Origin: a virus
Taxonomy: Duplodnaviria; Caudoviricetes
DNA: 38,254 nucleotides
IMG/VR virus record: IMGVR_UViG_3300025610_000007
Location: 1 to 38,254 of that record
Reading direction: 5' to 3' (one strand)
Shown here: piece by piece, positions 533-33,000 of the stretch
How the letters are laid out: each line of letters begins with the position of its first letter
How positions within the stretch are numbered: the first letter of the stretch is position 1
Made by a program: the position numbers and the translations under genes
Notes under the pieces: model-generated
The model's database searches: none
What the model was told of the DNA's origin: nothing
The model's input: only the letters and a program-made list of their open reading frames with translations

Positions 533-1135
533 TTATACTTCCCACATATATGACTCACAACACTGGCCACAAATTGGGGCTCCCTTTGCAAGCATAGTTC
601 TTGACAACCTAACAAAGTATTTTTCTTCGTATTCATTATGGCCGCTTCCACAGTCAGGGCACTCAACTTTAAGCATTCTTGTGCCTTGTTTTTTCCTTGG
701 CTTATAGTCCAAAGCTTCATGAGGATACTTACCTAATTTCTTTTGTATCTTAGCTAGTTTAATATTCATTTCATCACTTGCTATAGTAGCTGTCATTTTA
801 CCAGTAAGGCCAATAGCTTTGGCAATACGTCTAAATGGGCCCCTGTGGCCATGTTTACAATTATCATAAGCGTGTATCATTTCATGAGCTAAAACATCAC
901 CTACCCGACTTTCATCGGCTAAAACTGGATGGATGAATATTTCATTGAATCCGTTTGTTTTATCGTTAAAGCATTGACCGATAGCAGCATTTCTTTTTCC
1001 GCCTTGAGTTGTAAAGCCGCATGATACTTTGACTTTGCTCAAGTCTACTGGGTAACCAGCTGGCTTGAAGAATACTTCGTTTATTTCTTTGGCCATTGCT
1101 ACTAAATATTGTTCCCTAGTTTTAAATTGTCTCAT
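533..1135 (-). CDS. SprT-like zinc metalloprotease with C-terminal zinc ribbon
   Basis: LAHEMIH zincin motif followed by HGHRGPF; CPDC...CGQC at C-terminus; RBS AGAAAGGACAA. Confidence 0.8.
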   Translation of the reverse strand: MRQFKTREQYLVAMAKEINEVFFKPAGYPVDLSKVKVSCGFTTQGGKRNAAIGQCFNDKTNGFNEIFIHPVLADESRVGDVLAHEMIHAYDNCKHGHRGPFRRIAKAIGLTGKMTATIASDEMNIKLAKIQKKLGKYPHEALDYKPRKKQGTRMLKVECPDCGSGHNEYEEKYFVRLSRTMLAKGAPICGQCCESYMWEV

Positions 1136-1843: not shown

Positions 1844-3223
1844 ATGAATGTAGCTTGGCAACCACACGAAGGCCCACAGACCGAAGCATTAAGTCGCAGT
1901 GAATTTGAAATCCTCTACGGAGGTTCAAGAGGTGGCGGAAAGACAGAAGCAGGTCTTGCATGGATGGTAGAACCAGAATTTTTACAAAACGAAATGTACA
2001 GAGGTCTTGTTATTCGTAAGAATGTCGAAGATTTAAGAGACTGGATAGACAGAGCAAAAATATTTTATCGCCCCTTAAACGCTAAATTCATAGGACAGCC
2101 CTCAGAAATACGTTTTCCCGGGGGTGCAATCATTAGAACTGGCCACTTAAAAGACGAAAATGCTTACGAAAAGTATCAAGGACACGAATATCAAAAAATA
2201 TTAATAGAAGAGTTGACGCAAATCCCGCAAGAAGAACAATATTTAAGGTTAGTTTCTTCCGCAAGGTCAACAATAGGCTTAACTCCACAGATTTTTGCTA
2301 CTACAAACCCCGGTGGGCCCGGAATGGGCTGGGTAAAAGCTCGCTGGGTAGACAAAGCACGTGGAAAAACATACGTAGACCCAGTAACTACAAGGACTAG
2401 AATCTTCATTCCCGCTAAAGTAACCGATAATCCCACTTTGATGAAAAAAGACCCCGGATATATCCAATATTTGGATGGCTTACCGGAGGAACTGAGACGG
2501 GCATGGCGTGATGGAGATTGGGATGTCTTTGTAGGACAGTTCTTTAAAGAGTGGCGCAGGGCAGTTCATGTCGTACAACCCTTTAAAATACCAAAAGGTT
2601 GGTATAAATATAGGGCGATTGACTATGGATATAGAGCTCCATTTTGTTGTTTATGGGGTGCTGTTGATTATGATGGTAATGTATATATCTATAAAGAGCA
2701 CTACGAAGCAGAAAAAGAATTATCGCACCATATACGTATGATTAAGCAGCGTAGTGAGGCAGAAAACTATCATTTAACAGTAGGCGACCCTTCTATGTGG
2801 GCTAGAAATCCTGTGCGAGTCACAAAAAGGGATTCAATGATACCAACTCACATGTCTATAGCAGATTTAATGGCACAAGCCGGAATCCCGGTAGTAAAAG
2901 CAAATAATAACAGGCCAAATGGTTGGGCAGCTATAAGAGAGTATTTACATTGGGAGGGTGAAGAAGAAAACCCGACCAAACAACCACAAATATTTATTTT
3001 TGAAAATTGTGAAAATCTTATAAGAACCTTACCAAGTATGGTATTTGATAAAAATAGACCAGAAGATTTAGATACAAAGACAGAAGACCATGCTGTGGAC
3101 GCTCTTAGATACATGATTTTACAATTATACTCACCAAGTAAAAAGGATATAGCCCCATGGCTAGAAAAAGAATTACAAAGACTCGCTTCAACAGACTTCT
3201 ATCTGCCGGGAATAAGGGCATAG
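1844..3223 (+). CDS. terL: Terminase large subunit
   Basis: Q-motif PHEGPQ, Walker A GGSRGGGKT, Walker B ILIEE, motif III ATTNP, nuclease motifs AIDYG and EDHAVDALRY. Confidence 0.95.
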   Translation: MNVAWQPHEGPQTEALSRSEFEILYGGSRGGGKTEAGLAWMVEPEFLQNEMYRGLVIRKNVEDLRDWIDRAKIFYRPLNAKFIGQPSEIRFPGGAIIRTGHLKDENAYEKYQGHEYQKILIEELTQIPQEEQYLRLVSSARSTIGLTPQIFATTNPGGPGMGWVKARWVDKARGKTYVDPVTTRTRIFIPAKVTDNPTLMKKDPGYIQYLDGLPEELRRAWRDGDWDVFVGQFFKEWRRAVHVVQPFKIPKGWYKYRAIDYGYRAPFCCLWGAVDYDGNVYIYKEHYEAEKELSHHIRMIKQRSEAENYHLTVGDPSMWARNPVRVTKRDSMIPTHMSIADLMAQAGIPVVKANNNRPNGWAAIREYLHWEGEEENPTKQPQIFIFENCENLIRTLPSMVFDKNRPEDLDTKTEDHAVDALRYMILQLYSPSKKDIAPWLEKELQRLASTDFYLPGIRA

Positions 3224-3414
3224 AAGTGCTGAATAAAGATACGGGTGAATGGATTTCAATTAAAGATGTGCTCAGTTCAGATGAGTATATAAAATGGATT
3301 GAAGCAGAACAGATAGCTATGCAAATAGCTGAAGCTGAAGATGAAATTTGGGAAATGGGTACGTTAATGTGTGTACCGGGTTTTAGAATAAATAACAACG
3401 AAATGTATAACTAA
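3157..3414 (+). CDS. Hypothetical protein (start uncertain, overlaps end of terL)
   Basis: Fills the gap between terL and portal; stop lies 2 nt before the portal ATG. Confidence 0.5.
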   Translation: MARKRITKTRFNRLLSAGNKGIEVLNKDTGEWISIKDVLSSDEYIKWIEAEQIAMQIAEAEDEIWEMGTLMCVPGFRINNNEMYN

Positions 3415-3416
3415 TT

Positions 3417-5219
3417 ATGGCAGAATATAAATCAAAAGATAAACAACAAACCTCGAAAGAGAAACAGCTTATAAAGCGTATAAACGCAATGTTTGACATC
3501 GCTAAGCGCTCAAGAAGCAATGTAAACAAGCTATGGAGGGAATCCGAAGAAATGTACGCTGGTGAGCACTGGCGTGGTAGTAATATGCCTAAGTATCAAA
3601 ATCAAATGACATTAGACCTTATTGCTTCTGCAATAGATACAATGATACCGATTTTAAGCAGTAGGCCGCCTAAAATAGATGTATTACCATCTTCTACAGA
3701 TGAAGTAGACCGTAAGATAGCGGAAACAATGCAGATACAAATGGACGACCTATGGGAAATGAGAGACATGCAAAATGTCATGTCTGAATGGATTATGGAC
3801 TTTTTAGTGTACGGAACTGGCATAATGAAGACTTATTTTGGTGAAGATGACCTACCGGAGTGTAAAGTAGTAGACCCATTTAGTTTCTTTGTAAATCCTT
3901 CCGCAACAAGATTAGAAAATGCAGATTGGGTTATCTATGCTGCTCCAGTACCGCTACATGAGATAAGACACAAGTATCCAGAAAAAGCACAGTATGTAAA
4001 AGCAGATAGTAACTTAGAAAACTTTGAAGCATTAAGAATAAATGACATAGGGCAGGATAATAGCACTAAAGTAGTTATTAACGACCCTACAACTAATTCT
4101 ACGAGCAGATATTCTAGTGAGGGTGCAGCAGCTGAGGATTTAGAAGAAAGGGTCTTATTGATAGAATGTTGGTGGCGTAGCGGTGAGCATGACTATGTAG
4201 ATGCAGAAAAATCAGACTCACAAGTTTCTAAAATCCCGGGCAGTAGGCTAACTGTTATAGCTGGAGACTGTCTATTACATGATGGGCCGAGCCCTTACCC
4301 GTTCTTAAATAAACAGCATTACATACAGCATCCTTTTCCGTTCGTTGTTGCCAAGAATGGCGGCTCGGCTCACTCTTTTTATGGGAAGCCAGAACCTAAA
4401 AGACTAAAATCATTAAATCTAGGATTAGACAGGGTAGCTTCACAAATTGCTGATAACATCCACTTAATGGCTAATCCAATGTGGGTAGTAGATGAAACAG
4501 CACAAGTTACTGATAGTTTGGTAAATAAACCGGGTAGTGTGGTTCGTAAAAAGGGGCCGGGTACAGTAGCACAAGTATCACCAGCACCAATGCCGGGATA
4601 TGTGTTCAATTTTTACCAAATGATGTATGATATATTTGAAGTTGTATCCGGTGTAAATAGAGCAACACAAGGGCGTGAAGCCCCGAATGTTACCAGTGGT
4701 GTGCAGGCGGAAACATTACAACGTGCAGCAACGACAAAGATAGAGTATAAAAGTAGAGCAATAGATGTTTCTGTGCAACAATTAGGAGCGCAATGGCTTT
4801 CAATGATACAAAATCTATCTACAGAAGAACATGTTGTCAGCGTACCAACAGATGCTGGTATGGAAATGCGTGGATATAAAGGCGTGATGTTTAAAGACCA
4901 ACCAATGAGAGTTAGAAGTAAGACTGGTTCTATGTTACCGGTAAATAAAATGTTCATTGAACAGAAGGTTCTACAACTCTTACAAGCTGGTATTATACAA
5001 GACCCAGAGTTTGTATTAGAAAATATAGAACTTCCGGGTAAGCAACGTATTCTTGACAAACTTAGAGAGCAAAAACAGCTACAAGAAGAAGCAGACAGAG
5101 ACCAAGCATCTCAAATGGCAAAGCAAGAAGAAATACTTAGCACAAGCACTGATGAAGATGAGATAATGAACATCTTGCAACAACAACAAGCCGCAATGGA
5201 GCCATTTGGGCAGGAATAG
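3417..5219 (+). CDS. Portal protein (P22-like podovirus type)
   Basis: 600 aa after terL; motifs YGTGIMK, VDPFSFFVNPSA, FYGKP, SGV...QG...TSG; Gln-rich coiled-coil C-terminus. Confidence 0.9.
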   Translation: MAEYKSKDKQQTSKEKQLIKRINAMFDIAKRSRSNVNKLWRESEEMYAGEHWRGSNMPKYQNQMTLDLIASAIDTMIPILSSRPPKIDVLPSSTDEVDRKIAETMQIQMDDLWEMRDMQNVMSEWIMDFLVYGTGIMKTYFGEDDLPECKVVDPFSFFVNPSATRLENADWVIYAAPVPLHEIRHKYPEKAQYVKADSNLENFEALRINDIGQDNSTKVVINDPTTNSTSRYSSEGAAAEDLEERVLLIECWWRSGEHDYVDAEKSDSQVSKIPGSRLTVIAGDCLLHDGPSPYPFLNKQHYIQHPFPFVVAKNGGSAHSFYGKPEPKRLKSLNLGLDRVASQIADNIHLMANPMWVVDETAQVTDSLVNKPGSVVRKKGPGTVAQVSPAPMPGYVFNFYQMMYDIFEVVSGVNRATQGREAPNVTSGVQAETLQRAATTKIEYKSRAIDVSVQQLGAQWLSMIQNLSTEEHVVSVPTDAGMEMRGYKGVMFKDQPMRVRSKTGSMLPVNKMFIEQKVLQLLQAGIIQDPEFVLENIELPGKQRILDKLREQKQLQEEADRDQASQMAKQEEILSTSTDEDEIMNILQQQQAAMEPFGQE

Positions 5220-20886: not shown

Positions 20887-23601
20887 ATGCTCTCGTTAGG
20901 ACAGGGTATAGCCAAGGCAGCCAAACTGCCACTACAATTTATTAAGGACAACCTTAAACTATACCTCGACTTCAAATCTAATAAGTCAGACACGCTAAAG
21001 TTCCCATCAGAAGGTTCAACAGAGTTTAATGGTAGTAGTAATTACATAGAAACTTTAGACAGTTCTGATTTTGATTTTGGTACAGGAGATTTTTCTATTT
21101 CATTTTGGTTTAATGTAGATGATATTGATTGGAATTGGGCAGTATCAAGAGTAAATAGTGCAAATAGTAATGATGTTTTTAGAGCAGGAATTAATAATAG
21201 TGGGAAAATTATATTTAGAGATATAGTGGGTGGTGTTGATGTTGCAGGAAGCACAACTATTTCAATTAATACTTGGTATCATTTTTTTGCTGTAAGAAAT
21301 AGTGGCACTTTAAAAGTATATCTTAATGGTTCTGAAGATGGAAGTGCTTCATCGGGTGGTAATCTTGATAGTGATAAAGGATTTATAATTGGAAGATGGC
21401 AAGGTAATGGAGATTATTGGAATGGGCAACTTACTAATGTAGCAGTTTGGTCAAGAGCATTAGAGCCAGAAGAAATTCAATCCATAATGAACAAATCCTA
21501 TAGCCAACTAAAAGGTGTAGAAAAAACAAGTTTAGTTAGTTGGTGGGCGTTAGACGATGATACAGTAAATGGTGCTATTAATTCTCATGTACCAGAAGTA
21601 TTAGGAAATGAAATATTCCCTACATCAAATAGTGTGTATACTACAGATGGCTCACACTATACAAAAGATTCTTCTAATCCACCTAATCTTACATATCAAG
21701 ATACAGGAACAGGAACTGTAACAATAAATAATTCAGATTTAGAAGAATCTATAAATATATCTGCTACATATAAATTAACATTTACAATATTTGGTCTTAC
21801 AAGTGGACAAGCTAATTTAAAAGCAGTAAGTACCAATTTTGGAAATACCTATGTTGATGAAACTATGTTAGATAATGGTACACATACTTTTTATTTTATA
21901 AGACCTGCGGGAGGTGGAGATGGATTTAAATTTCGCTCTGATACTGCATCTGGTAGTACATTTACTATATCTGATTACTCACTTAAAAGAATAACTTCAG
22001 ATTCTAACATAGGACACATACGGGGATTAGCAACAACTACCACATCAGTATTTGGTGGCAACGCACCAGTCTTACCTCGTGCAGTTGATGTAGCTAAAGA
22101 AGGACAAGCAGATGCGATTGGAAATGGTAGCCTTACAACATCAAGTGGTGGATATGCTGATTTAGGAAACGATTCATTAATACAATTTGGTGGTAGTTTT
22201 TCTGTTTCTTGTTGGTTTAAAACAATAGATACAACTGCAACTAATGAAATGGTAATAGCCAAATCAGATGATGGTTCAAGTGCAGGTTGGTTAATTAGAT
22301 TAAATAGTAGTAGAAAATTAGATTTTACCTATACTAATTCTGCAAGTGGTGGTGTAGGTGTTACAATAAGCGATACTGGAAGTGCAGTAAATGATGGGGA
22401 ATGGTATCATGTAGCATTTGTACATGAATCTGGAGTAGGTAACAGAGCTTATAAAAATGGTATATTAATTGGTAGTAATTCTACAGGAACAGACCTCGGA
22501 AGTCATACACCAAATCTCCATGTAGGAAATCAAGACTTTTCTACTGCAAGAGCATTAGATGGTTCTTTTGCACAAGTTGGATTATGGCAAGGTGCATTAA
22601 CTCAAGCACAAATACAATCTGTTATGGAATCTACTTCATACTCAAAGATTCCTGCTGATGTAAAGAGTACATTAAGTGAGAATTATGTTACTAATAGTAC
22701 ATTTGATTCTGATATAAGTGGTTGGAGCCAAACTAACTCTACTTCATCAAATAGAACAACATCACATGCTACAATTGATGGTAGGACTTGTATTGATATA
22801 AACGATGCAAGTACATCTGGTCGTTTTAATGCACAGTTTGACCTCGGTAGCAATGCTGTAGATGGAGAACTATATAAAATAAGTTATTATGCAAGAAAAG
22901 CTCAAACAGGTAGTACAAGTAAAGATTTTATTGTTGGTCTTGGTTTTACAAATGTAGGTGGTGATGCAGGAAATGTTGATAAAACAGTTGCAGAATACGA
23001 TACATGGGAATTTCAAGAAATTTATATTGTATGTGGCTCTGCAAATAATTATTTACAATTTTTACCAACTGCTTATGATAATACACATATAGGTAGATTA
23101 TTTCTTGATGACGTAAAAGTACAAAAAGTAACTAACGACATCGTTGCGTACTATCCACTTGATGGTAGTAGTTCAGCAAATGGTGTTACAAATGATGCAA
23201 CTACAGGCGAAGTTTTAGGTAGTGAGTTAATTCCTGATGGTGAATTTACTGATGAAAGTTTATGGGATGCTGGAAGCGATACAGCTATAGGTACAGGAAT
23301 ATCTTTTGTAAATGGACAAGCAGTTTGGGATACATCTGGCACAATAGAATTAAAACAAGATATAACTATTAATAGTGGAAAACTATATAAAGTTGTATTA
23401 GACATAGATAGTGTAACATCTGGAACTATTAGAAATAATGTAGGCTCTTATGGAGGTACGTTTAATACTGCTGGAATTAAAACAGAATATATTACAGGAA
23501 CTGGTTCAAGATTTTATCTTGTTGGGTTCACTGGTTTTGATGGAGTGTTGAATAGCGTTTCAGTAAAAGAAGTTTTATCAAACACAGGAGTGCTTAAATA
23601 A
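20887..23601 (+). CDS. LamG/concanavalin A-like lectin fibre protein 1
   Basis: Repeated FSISFWF...WYH...KVYLNG...W-RAL-EI LamG motifs plus carbohydrate-binding-module-like inserts. Confidence 0.85.
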   Translation: MLSLGQGIAKAAKLPLQFIKDNLKLYLDFKSNKSDTLKFPSEGSTEFNGSSNYIETLDSSDFDFGTGDFSISFWFNVDDIDWNWAVSRVNSANSNDVFRAGINNSGKIIFRDIVGGVDVAGSTTISINTWYHFFAVRNSGTLKVYLNGSEDGSASSGGNLDSDKGFIIGRWQGNGDYWNGQLTNVAVWSRALEPEEIQSIMNKSYSQLKGVEKTSLVSWWALDDDTVNGAINSHVPEVLGNEIFPTSNSVYTTDGSHYTKDSSNPPNLTYQDTGTGTVTINNSDLEESINISATYKLTFTIFGLTSGQANLKAVSTNFGNTYVDETMLDNGTHTFYFIRPAGGGDGFKFRSDTASGSTFTISDYSLKRITSDSNIGHIRGLATTTTSVFGGNAPVLPRAVDVAKEGQADAIGNGSLTTSSGGYADLGNDSLIQFGGSFSVSCWFKTIDTTATNEMVIAKSDDGSSAGWLIRLNSSRKLDFTYTNSASGGVGVTISDTGSAVNDGEWYHVAFVHESGVGNRAYKNGILIGSNSTGTDLGSHTPNLHVGNQDFSTARALDGSFAQVGLWQGALTQAQIQSVMESTSYSKIPADVKSTLSENYVTNSTFDSDISGWSQTNSTSSNRTTSHATIDGRTCIDINDASTSGRFNAQFDLGSNAVDGELYKISYYARKAQTGSTSKDFIVGLGFTNVGGDAGNVDKTVAEYDTWEFQEIYIVCGSANNYLQFLPTAYDNTHIGRLFLDDVKVQKVTNDIVAYYPLDGSSSANGVTNDATTGEVLGSELIPDGEFTDESLWDAGSDTAIGTGISFVNGQAVWDTSGTIELKQDITINSGKLYKVVLDIDSVTSGTIRNNVGSYGGTFNTAGIKTEYITGTGSRFYLVGFTGFDGVLNSVSVKEVLSNTGVLK

Positions 23602-26600
23602 TGGCTACGACAATTAATTCTGGATACGCAAACTCTCCTAAACTTACTGCTAACATTGCAGACCACGCAGATGTACATGGTGGCAGAGCATTAGTATTTG
23701 ATGGGGTAAGTGATTATTTAGAAGTTAACCAAACATTTACTACAGATAATTTTGCTTTAAGTTTTTGGATTAATCCAAATGATGTAACGAGTGATAAATA
23801 TTTATTTGACCAAAATGCAGGTATTTGTAGGTCAGTAATAATTGGCTATCAAAATGGATATATAAATTTTATTAATGATGATAATGATGCAGGAGATTAT
23901 TATCCAACGGGAGATGAAATAGACACTCGAATTCCTGTAAGTGCTGGAGAATGGCAACATTATGTAATGATGACAGATGGCACTAAAGTATATGGATATA
24001 GAAATGGAGCTGAAATAGTTAATGTAACAGGTAAATGGGGAGCATCTGGAGCAGAGAAACTATGGATAGGCAAATACGAAAATGGGTTGCATTACGAAGG
24101 TAAAATGACAGATGTAAAAATATTTGATACTACTCTTACAGAAGCACAAGTACAAGAACTTTACAAGAAACCAGAAAACACACCAAGTGCAGTACAGGAT
24201 AACCTTGTAGCTTGGTATCCTATGATTGAGGGTGGAAAGCCAGAGAGTCCACAATCAATAGTATATGACCATAGTGAGAAGAAGTTGGGTAGTGAATTTT
24301 TTAATACTACCTATTCATCGAATACAGGTAGTTGGACAAAATATGATAACAATGGATTAGAAAATGATAACGGAGCAATAAAAGTAACTTATGTAGATAA
24401 TGCAAATGGTGCGTATTTATATCTAAATAACACAGATGATTTTGACCGCAATACAGATAGCACAGCATTATATAAGTTTACTTTTGAAGCAAAGGTGAAT
24501 ACAGGAACTGTAAAGTTAGCTATTGATGAAAGTGGAGAAAAATCAGCTTTAGACATAACAAATACAGAATTTGAATCACATACAATGTACGTTACAGGTA
24601 TTGGAGGTGGATTATTAAGACAAAAAAATATGGGTTCTGGGCAAATATTTTTTATTAAAAATTTATCTTTCAAAGAAGTCCTCATGGGTAACCACGCTAC
24701 TACAAATTTCTTTGGGGATGAGTTAATTACTAATGGAGATTTTTCAAGTGCTACAGGATGGACAGATGCAAGTAATATAATTTCTAATGATGTTGCTCAT
24801 TTTAACACTACAGGTACTTTGCAATATATAGAACAAGCAAATAAAGCAGTAGTTGGGAAAACATATCAATTAAAATACGATATAACTGAATATACAAGTG
24901 GTACAATAAAAACATATCATAGCCCAACTGTTACATTAAGCACATCAGTTGCAAGTCATACTACAACTTTTGTTGCAGAACATACTAATTTTGGTTTAAA
25001 AAGAGGTTCTGGTAGTGGAACTACTAATATTAAAATAGATAATGTATCTCTCAAAGAAGTAGGAGTATCCTCATCTGGATTTGAGACTGCTGTAAATGAA
25101 CCTGTAGTTCCACAAGTACCATTGATGAAATATAATCAGAAGATGTATTTTGGAGCAAATCACTTATTAAATCAATATGTTAGTACAGGACAAGCATTTA
25201 ATTTTGGTAAAAAAGTAACAATATCAGTATGGTTAGTGCCAGATGAAATTATAAGTGAAAGCAGGACAGGAATTATTGGTGGTCGTTATTATCAAGACGG
25301 AGATTTTCATTTAGGATTGCATAGCAATACAAGGCAAATAATGTTTAGCCCAAGAGCAGGAAATGGTGGTCAATGGAATTTAAGTGCAGACCAATGGGAT
25401 ATAGGTAAATTAGTTCATTTATGTTTAGTGTATGATACTTCAGAACAGGGAAATAGTGGTCAAGATTCTGCTAAACTATATGTTAATAGTATTTTGCAAA
25501 CTTCTCCTGTTGCTGGTAGTGGAGGAACAGTTGATTTAGAAACTACTGGATTAAGTATTGGTCACACAAATCAAATGGAGTATCATGGTTTTCTTGATGA
25601 GGCAAGTATATTTAATTCTGCATTTAATCAAACTCAAGTCCAAGAACTATTCAACGATGGTATCGCATTAGATGCTACTACACATAGTCAATTTATAGAC
25701 ACAACTGATTTATTAGGTGGTAGTTATGATTTTACAGATACAACTCAATGGAATCAAGTTTCTAACGCAACAAGAACATCTGCGACCTCAATAACTGCAA
25801 CAGCAGATAATGGCACTATAAGGACTTTGACTGGCTCTTTTGAAAACGATACAAGATTATATAAAATAAGTATTCAAGGTTCAGTAACTACAGGAAATAT
25901 CGATTTAAAGTCATGGGGTGGGCAAGAAACTTATAAAACAGGAATTACAGGAACATTTAATGAAACTGTTTATGCTAATACATCTTATGGTGGTTTAATG
26001 ATTGCACTTACTGCAAATACTGCTGTAGCTACTATAACAAATTTAAAAATTGAAAGACAATATTTATTAGGATATTGGCGAAATGATGGTGTAACTACAT
26101 GGACTGATAGAAGTGGCGTTGGCAACAATGGCACAGTACAAGGCTCACCAGATTCTATAACAATCAGAGAAGGACTTAACTCAAACAGAGATGGACTTGG
26201 GTTTTACTTTACTAATCCAAGTAGCAATGTGTTAAGGTTAAATGGTGTTGATGAGTATTTAGAAATACCAGACAATAAAGTGTTTAGCTTTGGAGATAGT
26301 AATGGTGATTTACCATTTAGTATTGAGGCTTGGTTAAAACCTAACGATGTTACAGGATTTCCAATAATATCAAAAGGAATATACAATACAAGTGCAGAGT
26401 ATATATTATGGATAAACTTAAGTAATAAATTATCATTTGAATTATACGATGAAAGCGTAAGCAATAATTATATATTAGCTAATTACAATTCCTCTTTAGC
26501 GAGTTATGAAGGTTCTTGGTTTCATGTGTGTGCTACTTATGATGGAAGAGGTGGTTCAAGTGCAAACGCAGGAATAAAATTATATATTAATGGAAGCAAT

Positions 26601-26795
26601 GTTGCAACTACTCTTGACAACTCGGGAACTTATGTTTCTATGGAAAACCTTAGTGCAAATGTTCATGTAGGTAGATATGATAATTATTATGCAGATGGTA
26701 TGATTGATGAGCTAAGAGTCTACAATAAAGAACTATCATTAGCTGAAATTCAGAAAAACTATAAACACCAAAAAGGTAAACACAAAAATGACTAA
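23601..26795 (+). CDS. LamG/concanavalin A-like lectin fibre protein 2
   Basis: FDGVSDY, FSIEAWLKP, WFHVCATYDG, KLYING, GMIDELRVYNKELS motifs. Confidence 0.85.
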   Translation: MATTINSGYANSPKLTANIADHADVHGGRALVFDGVSDYLEVNQTFTTDNFALSFWINPNDVTSDKYLFDQNAGICRSVIIGYQNGYINFINDDNDAGDYYPTGDEIDTRIPVSAGEWQHYVMMTDGTKVYGYRNGAEIVNVTGKWGASGAEKLWIGKYENGLHYEGKMTDVKIFDTTLTEAQVQELYKKPENTPSAVQDNLVAWYPMIEGGKPESPQSIVYDHSEKKLGSEFFNTTYSSNTGSWTKYDNNGLENDNGAIKVTYVDNANGAYLYLNNTDDFDRNTDSTALYKFTFEAKVNTGTVKLAIDESGEKSALDITNTEFESHTMYVTGIGGGLLRQKNMGSGQIFFIKNLSFKEVLMGNHATTNFFGDELITNGDFSSATGWTDASNIISNDVAHFNTTGTLQYIEQANKAVVGKTYQLKYDITEYTSGTIKTYHSPTVTLSTSVASHTTTFVAEHTNFGLKRGSGSGTTNIKIDNVSLKEVGVSSSGFETAVNEPVVPQVPLMKYNQKMYFGANHLLNQYVSTGQAFNFGKKVTISVWLVPDEIISESRTGIIGGRYYQDGDFHLGLHSNTRQIMFSPRAGNGGQWNLSADQWDIGKLVHLCLVYDTSEQGNSGQDSAKLYVNSILQTSPVAGSGGTVDLETTGLSIGHTNQMEYHGFLDEASIFNSAFNQTQVQELFNDGIALDATTHSQFIDTTDLLGGSYDFTDTTQWNQVSNATRTSATSITATADNGTIRTLTGSFENDTRLYKISIQGSVTTGNIDLKSWGGQETYKTGITGTFNETVYANTSYGGLMIALTANTAVATITNLKIERQYLLGYWRNDGVTTWTDRSGVGNNGTVQGSPDSITIREGLNSNRDGLGFYFTNPSSNVLRLNGVDEYLEIPDNKVFSFGDSNGDLPFSIEAWLKPNDVTGFPIISKGIYNTSAEYILWINLSNKLSFELYDESVSNNYILANYNSSLASYEGSWFHVCATYDGRGGSSANAGIKLYINGSNVATTLDNSGTYVSMENLSANVHVGRYDNYYADGMIDELRVYNKELSLAEIQKNYKHQKGKHKND

Positions 26796-27330
26796 TACAT
26801 ATTTAATATTAACAAAAGCAAAGTGGGAGTCAGCATTACCTGCTAAACTTAAAAAAGCTGATAGATTATCTTGGAATGAATACACATATCGAGATGAAGA
26901 GCGTAGTGCTACAAGGATGGTAGATAAATATGATTACTACCCATCAGATGATAACACAAAAGCAGAGATAAAGGCGTATATGGACGATTGTGACGTAGAT
27001 TATTCATCAAGTGATACCAAAGCTGAGTTATTAGAAAAACTCAACGCAGAGCCTCATTCTGTACCGCAAGAAGAAGAAAGTTATACGTACACAGAGCAGG
27101 TGGTAAATACTACTACATTGCAATCTCCAACTTGGAAAGAGTCAGCATTTAAGTTAGGCAAACTTGGAAGTCCAAGATGGAATAACGATGGTAGTAAAGT
27201 ATTAGTTAAATATGAATTACCTATAGCAGATGGAACATTAGATGCAGTAAAAGGCACAAGTGGTATTACTGCTTTATCACATAGTGAAGCTATAGCTGAA
27301 ATGCAAAAGGATGAGTGGTCTAGTGAGTGA
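26788..27330 (+). CDS. Fibre-associated hypothetical protein with HeH/SAP-like insert
   Basis: TKAEIKAYMDDCDVDYSSSDTKAELL helix-extension-helix-like motif. Confidence 0.6.
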   Translation: MTNTYLILTKAKWESALPAKLKKADRLSWNEYTYRDEERSATRMVDKYDYYPSDDNTKAEIKAYMDDCDVDYSSSDTKAELLEKLNAEPHSVPQEEESYTYTEQVVNTTTLQSPTWKESAFKLGKLGSPRWNNDGSKVLVKYELPIADGTLDAVKGTSGITALSHSEAIAEMQKDEWSSE

Positions 27331-27403
27331 AGACATTAAAGACATTATTAAGGTTTTGGCCTTTGTAATACTTGTACTTGGCGGCATCATACTTACTATA
27401 TGA
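27323..27403 (+). CDS. 26-aa hydrophobic peptide (not in ORF track)
   Basis: GTG start, (M)SEDIKDIIKVLAFVILVLGGIILTI; overlaps both neighbours. Confidence 0.45.
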   Translation: MSEDIKDIIKVLAFVILVLGGIILTI

Positions 27404-27723
27404 GCGATGAAAAAACGTACAGGAGTTATGGGGTCACTAAACTTGACGATAATTATCGGATTAGTCTTAACATCAAGTGGCTTGGCCAAATTATTGCTGG
27501 AGTTATTTTCATTAGTCTGGGTTACGTACGTATTGAGAACAGAATTGGAGACCTTGAACGAAGAATGGAACTTGCTAATTCCAGCATTGAAGAGCTTGTA
27601 GAAAAGCATATTGAAGAAGAAGAAGTAAAGATAACACAAATGCAAGAACAATTAAAATGGTACGAAGAAGAATTAAACTTAAATCCCTTGTCGTGGGGAA
27701 AGAAAAAAAGGAAGAGAAAGTAA
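27400..27723 (+). CDS. Membrane-anchored coiled-coil protein (lysis region)
   Basis: One TM segment followed by a coiled coil and a basic tail. Confidence 0.65.
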   Translation: MSDEKTYRSYGVTKLDDNYRISLNIKWLGQIIAGVIFISLGYVRIENRIGDLERRMELANSSIEELVEKHIEEEEVKITQMQEQLKWYEEELNLNPLSWGKKKRKRK

Positions 27724-27784
27724 TCTTAACTGAAGATGACTTTAATCATAATTACTTTATTAACCGGGAACTGCGGAGAGTACG

Positions 27785-27871
27785 ATGACCCCGAATCATT
27801 GTGCTGACTGTGAAAAACCAATTCATGAATTAGATAGTTGGTTGTGTGATGAATGTAAGGAAAAAGAATAA
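27785..27871 (+). CDS. 28-aa zinc-finger micro-protein MTPNHCADCEKPIHELDSWLCDECKEKE (not in ORF track)
   Basis: Two CxxC motifs, GGAG SD, TAATG coupling to the next gene. Confidence 0.5.
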   Translation: MTPNHCADCEKPIHELDSWLCDECKEKE

Positions 27872-28188
27872 TGGATTTTCTAGCGATTTACAGCGAAGCG
27901 GGTATGATAGGTGTCGTAGGGGCTTTGCTAGTGTATATGGTTTACTCTATGAACAAAAGAGGGTCTGCGCAGGCAGAAAGTTTAAACGACCTAAAAACGG
28001 AGAACAGGGGCCAGAGTGAAACCCTTGAGAATACTGAAGGTATGTTAATAAAACTTATAGACAGATGGAATAAAACTGACGAAAGAACTGATAGAAAATT
28101 TGATGATTTAACTAGACAGATAAATGATTTAGATAATCAGGTATCAGAAATAAAAGGAAGTTTGAGTAGAGTAAATGGCAAACACTAA
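27871..28188 (+). CDS. Membrane-anchored coiled-coil protein, holin-like
   Basis: N-terminal TM (GMIGVVGALLVYMVY) followed by a coiled coil. Confidence 0.6.
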   Translation: MDFLAIYSEAGMIGVVGALLVYMVYSMNKRGSAQAESLNDLKTENRGQSETLENTEGMLIKLIDRWNKTDERTDRKFDDLTRQINDLDNQVSEIKGSLSRVNGKH

Positions 28189-29486: not shown

Positions 29487-29509
29487 TTTACGTAGTTACG
29501 TAACACCTT

Positions 29510-29553
29510 AAAGCCGGGTTCTTGATTGTTTGTCCTTTCTCCCCGGCTTTTTT
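29510..29553 (+). terminator. Late-operon terminator-like hairpin with a large anti-RBS loop
   Basis: AAAGCCGGG / CCCGGCTTT stem, 23-nt pyrimidine-rich loop, T-tract. Confidence 0.7.
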
Positions 29554-29559
29554 GTATCC

Positions 29560-29574
29560 CAAATCTGACACAAT
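29560..29574 (+). repeat. Putative integrase arm-type site, copy 1
   Basis: CAAATCTGACACAAT, repeated exactly at 29752-29766 on the other side of the att core. Confidence 0.7.
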
Positions 29575-29598
29575 TTTTAAAAAGATTCTCTTGCGGAA

Positions 29599-29645
29599 CT
29601 GCCCTTACAAGGCAGATGTCGGGAGTTCGAATCTCTCAACGCCCA
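29599..29645 (+). mobile_element. attP: attP core: 3' half of tRNA-Val(TAC)
   Basis: CTGCC-CTTACAA-GGCAG anticodon arm, GGGAG-TTCGAAT-CTCTC T arm, AACGCCC-A acceptor strand; no D arm; next to int. Confidence 0.88.
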
Positions 29646-29651
29646 CTCCTC

Positions 29652-29689
29652 GAGAGCCCCTGTTTATTGACGGGGGCTTTTGTGTTTTT
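29652..29689 (+). terminator. Intrinsic terminator downstream of the tRNA fragment
   Basis: GAGAGCCCCTGT / ACGGGGGCTTTT stem followed by T-rich tail. Confidence 0.7.
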
Positions 29690-29745
29690 GGGGGGTTCTG
29701 ATTGTACTTCATTGTCCTTCAAAATATCGCATAAATAGCCATTAC

Positions 29746-29766
29746 CTGACTCAAATCTGACACAAT
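29746..29766 (+). repeat. Putative integrase arm-type sites, tandem pair
   Basis: CTGACTCAA-AT-CTGACACAA, matching 29560-29574. Confidence 0.7.
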
Positions 29767-29768
29767 GG

Positions 29769-30734
29769 TTAAACGAGTTTATCAATATATTGCTTCTGTA
29801 GTTTAAGTCCGCCATGAGCATACTTACTTGCCATCTTACTTGTTGAATGCCCAGTAAGGTTTTTAATATCTTCGAGCCCTAACCCAAGTTCTTGTAGGTT
29901 GGTTGTGAAGGAATGTCTCAAACTATGTAAGTTCCATTTTTTTAATGGGTATCCCATTCCTTCTAATTTTTTTTGTAATAACTCTCTTGATTTATCTCTG
30001 TCTCCTTTATGTATATATATCTCATATATCTCATTACCATACTCTATTAGTTTAGGATGTAAATAAATACCAACATCTCTATCTGTCTTTTTCTGATTAA
30101 CAACACCATTTTCTACATCTTCTTTTTTTAAAGTACCAGCATCAACAGCTCTTAAACCTGTATAATATAAAATGTTCCAAAATATCCTATCTCTTCTTGG
30201 GATGTTTAAACGCATTAACTTTTCCCAAACGTCCTTAGGTATATTTTCTCCATCCTTACTCTTTACATCTCCTATTGTTGCGGCTATCGTAGGATTACTG
30301 GATATATATGTGTTATTGTGGGCATACTCGAACATCTTTTTAATAATAGATAGCTCTTTTTTAACGGTAGTGCCAGCAACAACAGAGAGCCTATTATTAA
30401 TGTATTTATTAATATCAATAAGCCTCACGTTCTTTATTTGTTTTGTGCCCATATATTCTATTAAGTGATTCATTACTATTTTAACCCTGTCAGCCCATGC
30501 TTTTGTTTTCTTAGGAAGTATTTCTAAATTATAATATTCTTTATACAATTCCGCTACGTTTAAACTACTTGTTGCTATTCCGTTTTCTTGGAGCATTATT
30601 TCGGTGTATAATGCCGCTCCTAACTTTTCTGCTATTTTTTTATTGGTAGTCTTTAAAGACTTTCTGACCCTATTGCCTTTTTCGTTGCTACCATATATAA
30701 AATAATAATAACCATTACTTCTTTTTGTAATCAT
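29769..30734 (-). CDS. int: Tyrosine integrase
   Basis: TGLR, K (KKT), HSLRH, TGH and catalytic Y (KYAH); short N-terminal arm-binding-like domain. Confidence 0.95.
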   Translation of the reverse strand: MITKRSNGYYYFIYGSNEKGNRVRKSLKTTNKKIAEKLGAALYTEIMLQENGIATSSLNVAELYKEYYNLEILPKKTKAWADRVKIVMNHLIEYMGTKQIKNVRLIDINKYINNRLSVVAGTTVKKELSIIKKMFEYAHNNTYISSNPTIAATIGDVKSKDGENIPKDVWEKLMRLNIPRRDRIFWNILYYTGLRAVDAGTLKKEDVENGVVNQKKTDRDVGIYLHPKLIEYGNEIYEIYIHKGDRDKSRELLQKKLEGMGYPLKKWNLHSLRHSFTTNLQELGLGLEDIKNLTGHSTSKMASKYAHGGLKLQKQYIDKLV

Positions 30735-30765
30735 AGTTTGTCCTTTCTATTTAATTACTGTTTAA

Positions 30766-31485
30766 TTATTCAGACAACCACCTAATATGTGCAGTGCCAG
30801 TTCCTTTTACCCAGTTTACTCTATATTCAACATTTGCTTTAAATATTGTACCATTTTTATGAGTATATAAAACTGGTATTTCAGCTACAAGCATCGTTGT
30901 ATTCATTTTAATGGCTTTATATGCTCTCATAAAATTATCCATTATGCCAAGCATTTCTTCTTTTTGCTTTTGAGTCCTTAATTGATGAATATTGTGGTCT
31001 TTATAGTCCACCATTTCATCTATTTGTAAAAAATTAATTATTTGTGCTTCAGTATAACCTAATTTTTTAGCCATTGTTGGTATATAACTACTATCTTGAG
31101 AAAGATATTTTACTTTTACCCCGAAATTTTTTATTGACCAACTAAATTTCACTTCAAAAGAAAATACAATATCAGATTGTATACCATCATATACAGATTC
31201 ATCTTCTTTGATTTTACTTTCTAATTGTTCTATCTTTTCTTTTTGCAATTCTATTAAATAGTCTTTTTGATTATTGCTTATTGCTGCACTCTCTATCACT
31301 TCATTTGTCCTTTCTTCTTTTTTGTCTAAAACTTCAAACCTTCTTTTGACCATCTCTGGTACTTCAGTTCTCCCTGATTCATAGTTAGCAACTGTGTTTC
31401 TATGTATACTTAAAATCTTTGCAAATTGGCCCTGAGTATATCCATTTCTTAAACGATAGGCTCTCAATATTTCTTGCATTTCCAT
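30766..31485 (-). CDS. Repressor-like regulator: XRE HTH, coiled coil, PAS-like domain (start revised to 31485)
   Basis: LRAYRLRNGYTQGQFAKILSIHRNTVANYESG HTH; GGAGG SD before MEMQ; divergent from the Xis-like gene. Confidence 0.8.
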   Translation of the reverse strand: MEMQEILRAYRLRNGYTQGQFAKILSIHRNTVANYESGRTEVPEMVKRRFEVLDKKEERTNEVIESAAISNNQKDYLIELQKEKIEQLESKIKEDESVYDGIQSDIVFSFEVKFSWSIKNFGVKVKYLSQDSSYIPTMAKKLGYTEAQIINFLQIDEMVDYKDHNIHQLRTQKQKEEMLGIMDNFMRAYKAIKMNTTMLVAEIPVLYTHKNGTIFKANVEYRVNWVKGTGTAHIRWLSE

Positions 31486-31591
31486 AAAATCCTCCAATTT
31501 TATCTTGCACAATATAGTACATTTATGTTTATATTTGCACATCAATTATGATTCAAATACTAATTAAACCATAAAGATACATAAAGGTACA

Positions 31592-31786
31592 ATGAAAAAC
31601 ATTTTTAATCAAGAAGAAATATATAGCCCTAAAGAAGCTGCTGAAATACTTAAAGTAAGTAAGGCCGCTATCTTAGAAGACATTCATACAAAAAGAATAA
31701 AGAATGTAATTAAGCGTGGCTATCGCACCTTTCGCATACCGGGTGATTCTCTTAATGCTTATTGGAATAGCCAGAGAATTTCCTAA
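31592..31786 (+). CDS. Excisionase-like HTH protein (HTH_17 type)
   Basis: YSPKEAAEILKVSK...G.RTFRIP..SL. Confidence 0.8.
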   Translation: MKNIFNQEEIYSPKEAAEILKVSKAAILEDIHTKRIKNVIKRGYRTFRIPGDSLNAYWNSQRIS

Positions 31787-31794
31787 AAATAATT

Positions 31795-31885
31795 GGAGGG
31801 CCGCATCCCCAATCTCTCTACCTATAGCGTGGCCTTCTGTTCAGCTGCTGAGGTTTCTTATTCCTCCTTTCTTGACCTCAGCGGC
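31795..31885 (+). ncRNA. Candidate two-hairpin structured RNA with an anti-Shine-Dalgarno loop
   Basis: Two 10-12 bp stems whose G-U pairs work only on the + strand; loop 2 contains CCTCCTTTCT. Confidence 0.5.
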
Positions 31886-31912
31886 AAGCTTTAATAACTA
31901 TCAGGAGAAACA

Positions 31913-32767
31913 ATGAATAAAACACCTATTATGTGTAAGATGGTAAGTAGTGGAGGGAATAGATACTACGTGCCTATCAATACAAACTATGTTCAAGAGG
32001 AATATAAATTGGATGACCTTTACCCATGGAAAAAGTTATCCACTACCAGCTTTTTAAATATCTTAAATAAACCGGGGCTTACTGCATGGAAGCAAAACAA
32101 AGGTTGGCTTGCTGGGCCAGAAGGTAAAACAGCTGCACTCAAAGGCACAATTACGCACATTGGTGTAGATAGAATGCACTATGGTGCACCAGTTAATAAA
32201 GAGTGGATAATGATGAAGATTAATAAAAGTAGGTTCACGATGTGGCAGCTTTTTTATGACTCAGCAGATTCTCTTTGTTATGACATACAAAAGCATTTAG
32301 CTGGGTATGTGGCATTTTGTGAAGAAAAACAACCTGAGATACTTGCTAGTGAAATTATGTTGTGGCACCCTAATTATCTATGGGCTGGGACAGGTGATTT
32401 ATTTGCAAGCTTTAAAACACGTAAAAATAATAAGAATAGAGTTAATTGTTACATAGACCTAAAGACAGGCAAACCTAACCCTGAGCACGCCATTCAAGGG
32501 GTTGCCTATGCTATGTTGTGGAACGCTCACTTTCCTGAGCAACAAATCACGCATATAGGAAACGTATATACAAACGATGGATGGTTGAAAGACCCCACAT
32601 ACAAATTAACAGTAAAGCCAATCACAGATGAATTACGTGATGAGTGGATGGCCATTGTAAATCTTTATGAAAAACAAAAGGGGAAGAATTGGCAGCCTAG
32701 AAAACAGCCTGAAGTCCCCGAAGATTTTTCAATATCATATCTTAAACAACAGAAAAGGAGTGCATAG
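31913..32767 (+). CDS. PD-(D/E)xK exonuclease (lambda-exo/Cas4-like superfamily)
   Basis: GTITH, SE, WAGTGDL, YIDLKTG, Q..AY motifs. Confidence 0.8.
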   Translation: MNKTPIMCKMVSSGGNRYYVPINTNYVQEEYKLDDLYPWKKLSTTSFLNILNKPGLTAWKQNKGWLAGPEGKTAALKGTITHIGVDRMHYGAPVNKEWIMMKINKSRFTMWQLFYDSADSLCYDIQKHLAGYVAFCEEKQPEILASEIMLWHPNYLWAGTGDLFASFKTRKNNKNRVNCYIDLKTGKPNPEHAIQGVAYAMLWNAHFPEQQITHIGNVYTNDGWLKDPTYKLTVKPITDELRDEWMAIVNLYEKQKGKNWQPRKQPEVPEDFSISYLKQQKRSA

Positions 32768-32769
32768 CT

Positions 32770-33000
32770 ATGGCACAACAGTACGAAGTAAAGCCTGAAA
32801 CAGGCAGTCTCTTTAAAAATAAAGAGAAGAGTAAACCAACAGCACCAGACCTAACAGGAAACTGTAAAGTGGGTGGCAAGGAGTGGCGTGTAGCCGCTTG
32901 GATGAATGAGTCAAAGAAAGGTGTTAAATACTATTCTTTGAAGTTCAGTGAGCCACAGGCTGGTGATTCAGCACCAAAGGATGATGATTTACCATTCTAA
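32770..33000 (+). CDS. Putative small ssDNA-binding protein
   Basis: GSLFKN...PDLTG...AAW...KYYSL and an acidic SSB-type tail DDDLPF. Confidence 0.7.
   Translation: MAQQYEVKPETGSLFKNKEKSKPTAPDLTGNCKVGGKEWRVAAWMNESKKGVKYYSLKFSEPQAGDSAPKDDDLPF

Follow-up and report, generated by a model that had tools for sequence, protein, structure and literature searches.

The stretch of DNA analysed here (the window) spans 38,254 bases and makes up a complete virus record: direct terminal repeats close its ends, and it encodes a terminase, a portal and a major head protein. Its positions 30766..31485, on the minus strand, encode a 239-aa regulator (P0001) whose ORF, domain matches and structural model describe a helix-turn-helix (HTH), a coiled coil and a predicted PAS domain in succession; GGAGG stands 5 nt ahead of its ATG, and the protein is likely the immunity repressor of the phage. 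The gene for a tyrosine integrase (29769..30734, minus strand; PF00589, E 1.8e-14; phrog_1, E 1e-42) begins 31 nt downstream on the same strand. On the other side, an excisionase-family HTH_17 protein (31592..31786, plus strand; PF12728, E 7.5e-9; TIGR01764 over the cut-off) opens a rightward early/replication operon that includes exonuclease, SSB, DnaD-like and resolvase genes. The regulator thus occupies a divergent-switch position beside int and xis, as repressors of the Lambda CI type do, and the 106-bp spacer between it and xis (31486..31591) is the presumed promoter/operator region. Operator-like repeats in this spacer do not rise above chance, the observed values being reached by 41/200 and 188/200 shuffles. 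RNA contigs from two studies start at 31558 and 31559, where a DNA contig continues, a weak hint of a rightward transcription start 33 nt before xis; across four runs, RNA contigs, which cannot show absence, leave the PAS-coding part of the regulator gene almost uncovered. Elsewhere in the window (20900-27900), RNA contigs carry many replaced segments and loose ends within two long late genes, which suggests coexisting tail-fibre variants.

The N-terminal part of the regulator (aa 1-60; 31306..31485, minus strand) is an XRE/Cro-CI HTH, as the original prediction had it: HTH_3 (PF01381) matches residues 7-41 with an E-value of 3.5e-8, over the cut-off, and structural matches to XRE domains reach Z 7-8.7. 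This is the sole HTH_3 match in the complete 38-kb genome. A predicted long helix, likely a coiled coil (aa 71-94; 31204..31275, minus strand), connects it to the C-terminal domain and, in the model, lies between the two modules that related phages exchange. The motifs from which a PAS-like sensor had originally been read, namely a coiled-coil stretch (residues 77-94), an LGY helix (138-150) and a KNG hairpin (202-223), are all in the protein. Lambda CI combines an XRE HTH with an S24 peptidase, and the claim that an S24 Ser/Lys domain is missing here holds well beyond the regulator: the domain search found none in the protein, none in the whole phage genome and none in the 11 related records searched, three of them at least 90% complete, while a control search for S24 gave a match in 9 of 14 genomes.

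What takes the place of the peptidase is a domain (aa 104-239; 30769..31176, minus strand) that a model, a fold search and a profile alignment together predict to be a PAS fold with a 10-residue insertion ahead of its E-alpha helix. The model of residues 96-239, built from 21 sequences (pLDDT 88, pTM 0.80), has the element order E-E-H-H-H-H-E-E-E, as in PAS. VIA-align, run against 48,161 chains, returned 3h9w as the best match (rmsd 2.6, 102 residues aligned) at Z 8.9, a score that barely exceeds the noise range of 7-8; of the 50 matches listed, 47 are, by title or by what is known of the proteins, PAS or LOV domains, the other three being 3clo, 9hkf and 2ykf. Foldseek recovered the same families, yet with no row at E <= 0.001. 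The structure prediction and fold search that the original prediction had proposed for the C-terminal part therefore point to PAS at model level. Profile-profile alignment with 30 host PAS_3 domains scored 25.9 (E 7e-4, probability 27%), against 11.3 +/- 2.4 and a maximum of 19.1 in 30 column shuffles; it pairs the GY..E helix and sets the 10-residue insertion before E-alpha. Pfam PAS models match none of the 21 family members, a sequence search of the PDB with the family profile gave nothing under E 0.19 and so no PAS chain, and a feature search of the ESM Atlas with the PAS part gave no usable match. Because fold and profile match PAS while the Pfam PAS models miss 21 of 21 members, we regard the C-terminal domain as a predicted divergent PAS subfamily.

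The conserved residues of this domain are G143, Y144, Y161, H164, I166, H167, R170, M178, P204, Y207 and Y221. Y161, H164, H167, R170, M178, Y207 and Y221 are each present in 56/56 close homologues, and in a wider set of 26 they persist in 24, 25, 23, 23, 22, 26 and 24 members, respectively. Y207, which is invariant, and Y221, which is nearly so, point inward by the alignment register and might fill a pocket. The PAS domain is under purifying selection, with a median dN/dS of 0.23 (102 of 105 pairs).

The layout of the switch is shared by relatives. Of 46 loci examined, one lacking the gene and nine with less than 1 kb downstream were left out, and among the remaining 36 the integrase stands directly downstream of the regulator in 26, a raw count in which the same phage is partly repeated. 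The synteny survey suggested at the outset accordingly finds the int/regulator/xis arrangement conserved across relatives, with departures: the regulator is kept without an adjacent integrase at 10/36 loci, including a 91%-complete record without any integrase, other gene orders occur at four loci (L048, L050, L052 and L059), and a second, divergent XRE gene is present in L010, L011 and L013. At L052, an integrase-like ORF, recognised by eye (2479-3438), is located upstream, on the regulator's own strand. Right after the regulator in two integrase-less loci stand 3' pieces of tRNA-Leu(GAG) or tRNA-Ser(GGA) (L070:4583-4623 and L062:4518-4573) that match the same host genomes; because such pieces remain, the two loci tested suggest that the integrase was lost recently while attP and the regulator were retained. 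Comparable tRNA pieces were seen by eye in L016, L017, L051, L066 and L072. The regulator is frameshifted in one locus (L003:464-1222, the same as L041) and intact in the near-identical L007/L060; the frameshift may be an assembly error.

A tyrosine integrase beside a host tRNA 3' end marks the window as a likely tRNA-integrating temperate phage. Beyond the integrase lies the 3' part of tRNA-Val(TAC), which, together with the host's downstream hairpin, forms a likely attP (29599..29687, plus strand) recognised by its match to host genomes. An exact 47-nt tRNA-Val match occurs in 12 stretches on 10 genome contigs, three of them titled Ca. Neomarinimicrobiota, a group that NCBI places under Fidelibacterota. 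The attP region matches L029 at 100% over 50 nt; in L019 and L022 the alignment takes in the host hairpin as well and covers 90 columns, with identity reaching 92%. Because this attP matches tRNA-Val of their genomes, the hosts are likely Marinimicrobia (SAR406; Fidelibacterota), of which the window is likely a temperate phage. Fidelibacterota is also the commonest phylum of an Atlas cluster of 796 members that resembles the C-terminal model (TM 0.51) and in which PAS_3 is annotated in 65% and Phage_CI_repr in 58%. Among 401 genomes of the host phylum we found no integrated copy with the regulator gene, and contig comparison gave no phage-host junction among the joints listed; Rfam missed the tRNA pieces, the window's own included, which makes the Rfam test powerless here. 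The host tRNA-Val, which follows lon, is also occupied by other islands (L025/L026 and L020), in which a 1.7-kb insert lies between repeats of the tRNA 3' end and the upstream flank resembles that of the phage attP. Runs with DNA of window positions 29500-32800 carry a freshwater metagenome label, and relatives carry marine labels (tara, uvMED).

The family is mosaic. A word-index search recovered 70 homologues that share 50-99% identity in the C-terminal region. Exhaustive searching with a profile yielded 29 representatives, two of them (P0078 and P0092) apparently spurious, and tblastn against 50,697 GenBank phages gave no match. Both domains are present in 64 of 71 proteins; among these, median identity climbs from 23% in the HTH through 43% in the coil to 74% in the PAS domain, and the HTHs fall into 13-19 clusters, depending on the threshold. 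A PAS identity of at least 80% coincides with an HTH identity below 30% in 281 of 370 pairs, and one identical PAS domain (P0022 and P0025) is joined to two HTH types. Placed on the PAS tree, which was built by a quick method and leaves 27 of 57 inner branches open, 16 HTH types require 37 changes, compared with a minimum of 15 and a shuffled mean of 47.9. Exchange also uncouples the PAS domain from its neighbours. In a cassette comparison that took in 13 loci, L046 and L014 share xis (100%), HTH (91%) and integrase (99%) at a PAS identity of 57%, and the window and L060 share PAS (84%) at identities of 24% for xis, 21% for the HTH and 33% for integrase. These comparisons indicate that related phages swap the PAS tail independently of the remaining cassette. 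No longer fused form appeared among 7,992 candidates scored, a weak negative from a scoring that also missed two host response regulators.

The same PAS subfamily, with H164 retained, occurs in 3 of the 401 host-phylum genomes. Two of the host proteins (L034:1465-2580 and L035:1495-2580, both on the minus strand) are NarL-type REC-LuxR response regulators that adjoin a histidine kinase and carry the PAS domain, in an unusual domain order, as a C-terminal tail. The third (L037:7696-8454, plus strand) is an HTH-PAS gene divergent from a small membrane protein, on a 17-kb host contig that has no visible phage genes and, from a reading of its ORFs, no integrase. RecA was found in 5/5 host genomes and LexA in 45/54, which rules out the idea that S24 is missing because the hosts do not have an SOS response; because the hosts carry both proteins, an indirect SOS route is available to the phage. 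A LexA-box comparison placed host lexA inside an operon and yielded no dyad from 30 upstream regions. In L030:1213-3114 and L116-L145, no separate promoter region precedes host lexA, and an ORF of 390-410 aa that follows host lexA looks, by eye, like a Y-family polymerase.

The regulator resembles several known systems, each in part. Like Lambda CI and LexA-type proteins, it has an N-terminal XRE HTH, shows variable HTHs over a conserved C-terminal domain and belongs to a divergently arranged switch that adjoins the integrase and excisionase genes; unlike them, it has no S24 domain, a predicted PAS domain standing in its stead and a coiled coil between the domains. VqmA-phage of VP882 is likewise phage-encoded, regulates transcription and has a PAS domain linked to the lysis/lysogeny decision, and the host has related PAS regulators. 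However, VqmA-phage has an N-terminal PAS domain and a C-terminal LuxR-type HTH, is a receptor for DPO and activates the antirepressor gene qtip (PMC8284805), whereas in our regulator the XRE HTH comes first and the PAS domain second, the protein holds the repressor's own position, and no separate CI was found. The cI protein of N15 and the TF-smORF modules are also repressors without an autoproteolytic domain, but they need a separate antirepressor or small protein, and the portion of that account available describes no PAS tail (PMC10432266). FG214 and EL222 join an HTH and a PAS domain in one polypeptide, FG214 in the same HTH-then-PAS order and with a signal-driven monomer-dimer switch (10.64898/2026.03.15.711900); both are cellular proteins, bound to heme or flavin. 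Control of HTH DNA binding by PAS domains is established for VqmA (PMC8284805) and FG214 (10.64898/2026.03.15.711900). The available part of a PAS survey refers to phages only once, to cite VP882 (PMC10468136), and that of a single-cell study of Marinimicrobia viruses makes no mention of a regulator of this type (PMC4611503). In the literature that we searched, there is no description of a PAS-bearing phage repressor, although annotation tables could hold some, nor of such a repressor in Marinimicrobia phage regulation. The protein likely works like a CI-type repressor, outside the S24 family, and is neither a LOV nor a VqmA protein.

We posit, with a probability of just under one half, that the regulator is the repressor of a tRNA-Val-integrating Marinimicrobia phage, in which the PAS domain dimerises and reads a host cue, releasing the lytic operon without self-cleavage. 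Its assignment as an immunity repressor would follow from position, uniqueness and HTH diversity, and it would repress a rightward promoter within 31486-31591. The PAS domain would take the place of S24 as both dimeriser and input, and a host-derived cue bound by it would alter DNA binding and free the lytic operon. We infer a host-derived input because the PAS domain moves free of the phage's other genes and is common to host regulators; since it moves in this way, a phage-specific partner is also unlikely. The PAS tail thus likely responds to a cue from the host, and not to DNA damage or to light; our first guess would be a small metabolite or a cofactor from the cytoplasm, bound through Y161, H164, H167, Y207 and Y221. 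A more specific version, in which the repressor PAS, shared with host regulators, binds a host metabolite or cofactor in a one-protein lysogeny switch and PAS alleles pass between phages whatever their immunity type, is a tentative extension. Of the sensor repressor originally predicted, the predicted PAS domain, the missing S24 and the conserved switch position stand, and the light reading falls. Several observations speak against so simple a picture: integrase-less carriers, other gene orders, a spacer with no operator repeat above chance and the failure to find an integrated copy. Exchange of the PAS domain between cassettes could also be neutral recombination.

The strongest competitor, which we consider unlikely but well short of negligible, retains the repressor and denies the sensor: the PAS domain would serve only for dimerisation, oligomerisation or docking, and an antirepressor or protease, governed by host SOS or in some other way, would bring about induction. 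Conserved C-terminal domains beneath variable HTHs fit plain oligomerisation equally well, and VqmA is described as unable to dimerise or to bind DNA unless it has its PAS domain (PMC8284805). Repressors that are non-cleavable and are switched off by a separate antirepressor or peptidase are known (PMC10432266), and RecA and LexA are present in the hosts. The window also offers a candidate protease, a SprT-like metallopeptidase (533-1135, minus strand) with C-terminal CxxC pairs, along with several small ORFs that have no assignment. The SprT-like gene, however, is confined to its own record (1/11; 1/3 of the near-complete ones); being in none of the 10 related records, it was rejected as a conserved ImmA-like partner. 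Antirepressor families are likewise missing from the 24 ORFs scanned and from the other genes domain-searched. A cognate phage antirepressor would, moreover, hinder the exchange of PAS alleles independently of all neighbours, the predicted coiled coil is already there for dimerising, and polar conservation at H164, H167 and R170 probably goes beyond the usual needs of folding.

A signal-dependent regulator that acts at infection, as an integrase activator or lysis timer in a VqmA- or CII-like role, rather than as a maintenance repressor, is improbable. It would account for the intact regulators without an adjacent integrase at 10/36 loci and in a host island without one, and for the second divergent XRE gene in L010, L011 and L013. 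But the regulator is alone as an HTH_3 gene in a complete genome, and the variety of HTH types that share a single architecture resembles immunity groups, a pattern established for lambdoid CI proteins; the tRNA-Leu or tRNA-Ser 3' pieces at the two integrase-less loci tested suggest recent integrase loss.

Doubtful to a further degree is a heme/gas or redox sensor like FG214, FixL or Aer2, with H164/H167 and M178 as ligands. All three residues are unchanged in 56/56 close homologues; FG214, a one-component HTH-PAS heme switch with bis-His ligation (10.64898/2026.03.15.711900), is the 22nd match in the Foldseek search (E 0.02), and SAR406 is reportedly discussed in the oxygen-minimum-zone literature. 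Heme PAS domains are nevertheless not prominent among the fold matches (FixL Z 6.1 versus 8.9 at the top), H167 is lost in 3/26 and M178 in 4/26 distant members, and the PAS_3 histidine aligns to T171, neither to H164 nor to H167.

Finally, a LOV-type blue-light sensor can be set aside with near certainty, frequent as LOV domains are among the fold matches: LOV motifs place a photoactive Cys in E-alpha, the protein contains zero cysteines, its E-alpha helix (residues 165-169) has I166 at the inferred Cys position, as in 55/56 homologues, and in the fold search LOV domains (7-12% identity) have no scoring advantage over the remaining PAS matches. The echo of the LOV motif noted at first does include NFLQ (151-154) and, as was said then, no Cys, yet the resemblance is coincidental, N151 recurring in 6/56 and F152 in 12/56 homologues and the motif lying off register, ahead of the 10-residue insertion. 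Any cue read by the PAS domain is not flavin photochemistry.

A repressor that reads a host cue would bear on a wider question, since natural prophage inducers apart from DNA damage are, according to PMC10432266, an open question. A repressor that is small and soluble and has a sensor pocket of its own lends itself to expression and screening in E. coli even though the host is uncultured, which brings the cue that induces an abundant group of aquatic phages within reach of direct tests. The natural HTH/PAS chimeras provide ready-made controls and a modular biosensor scaffold. If the proposed switch is correct, immunity and the inducing cue would be separately exchangeable modules in these phages.
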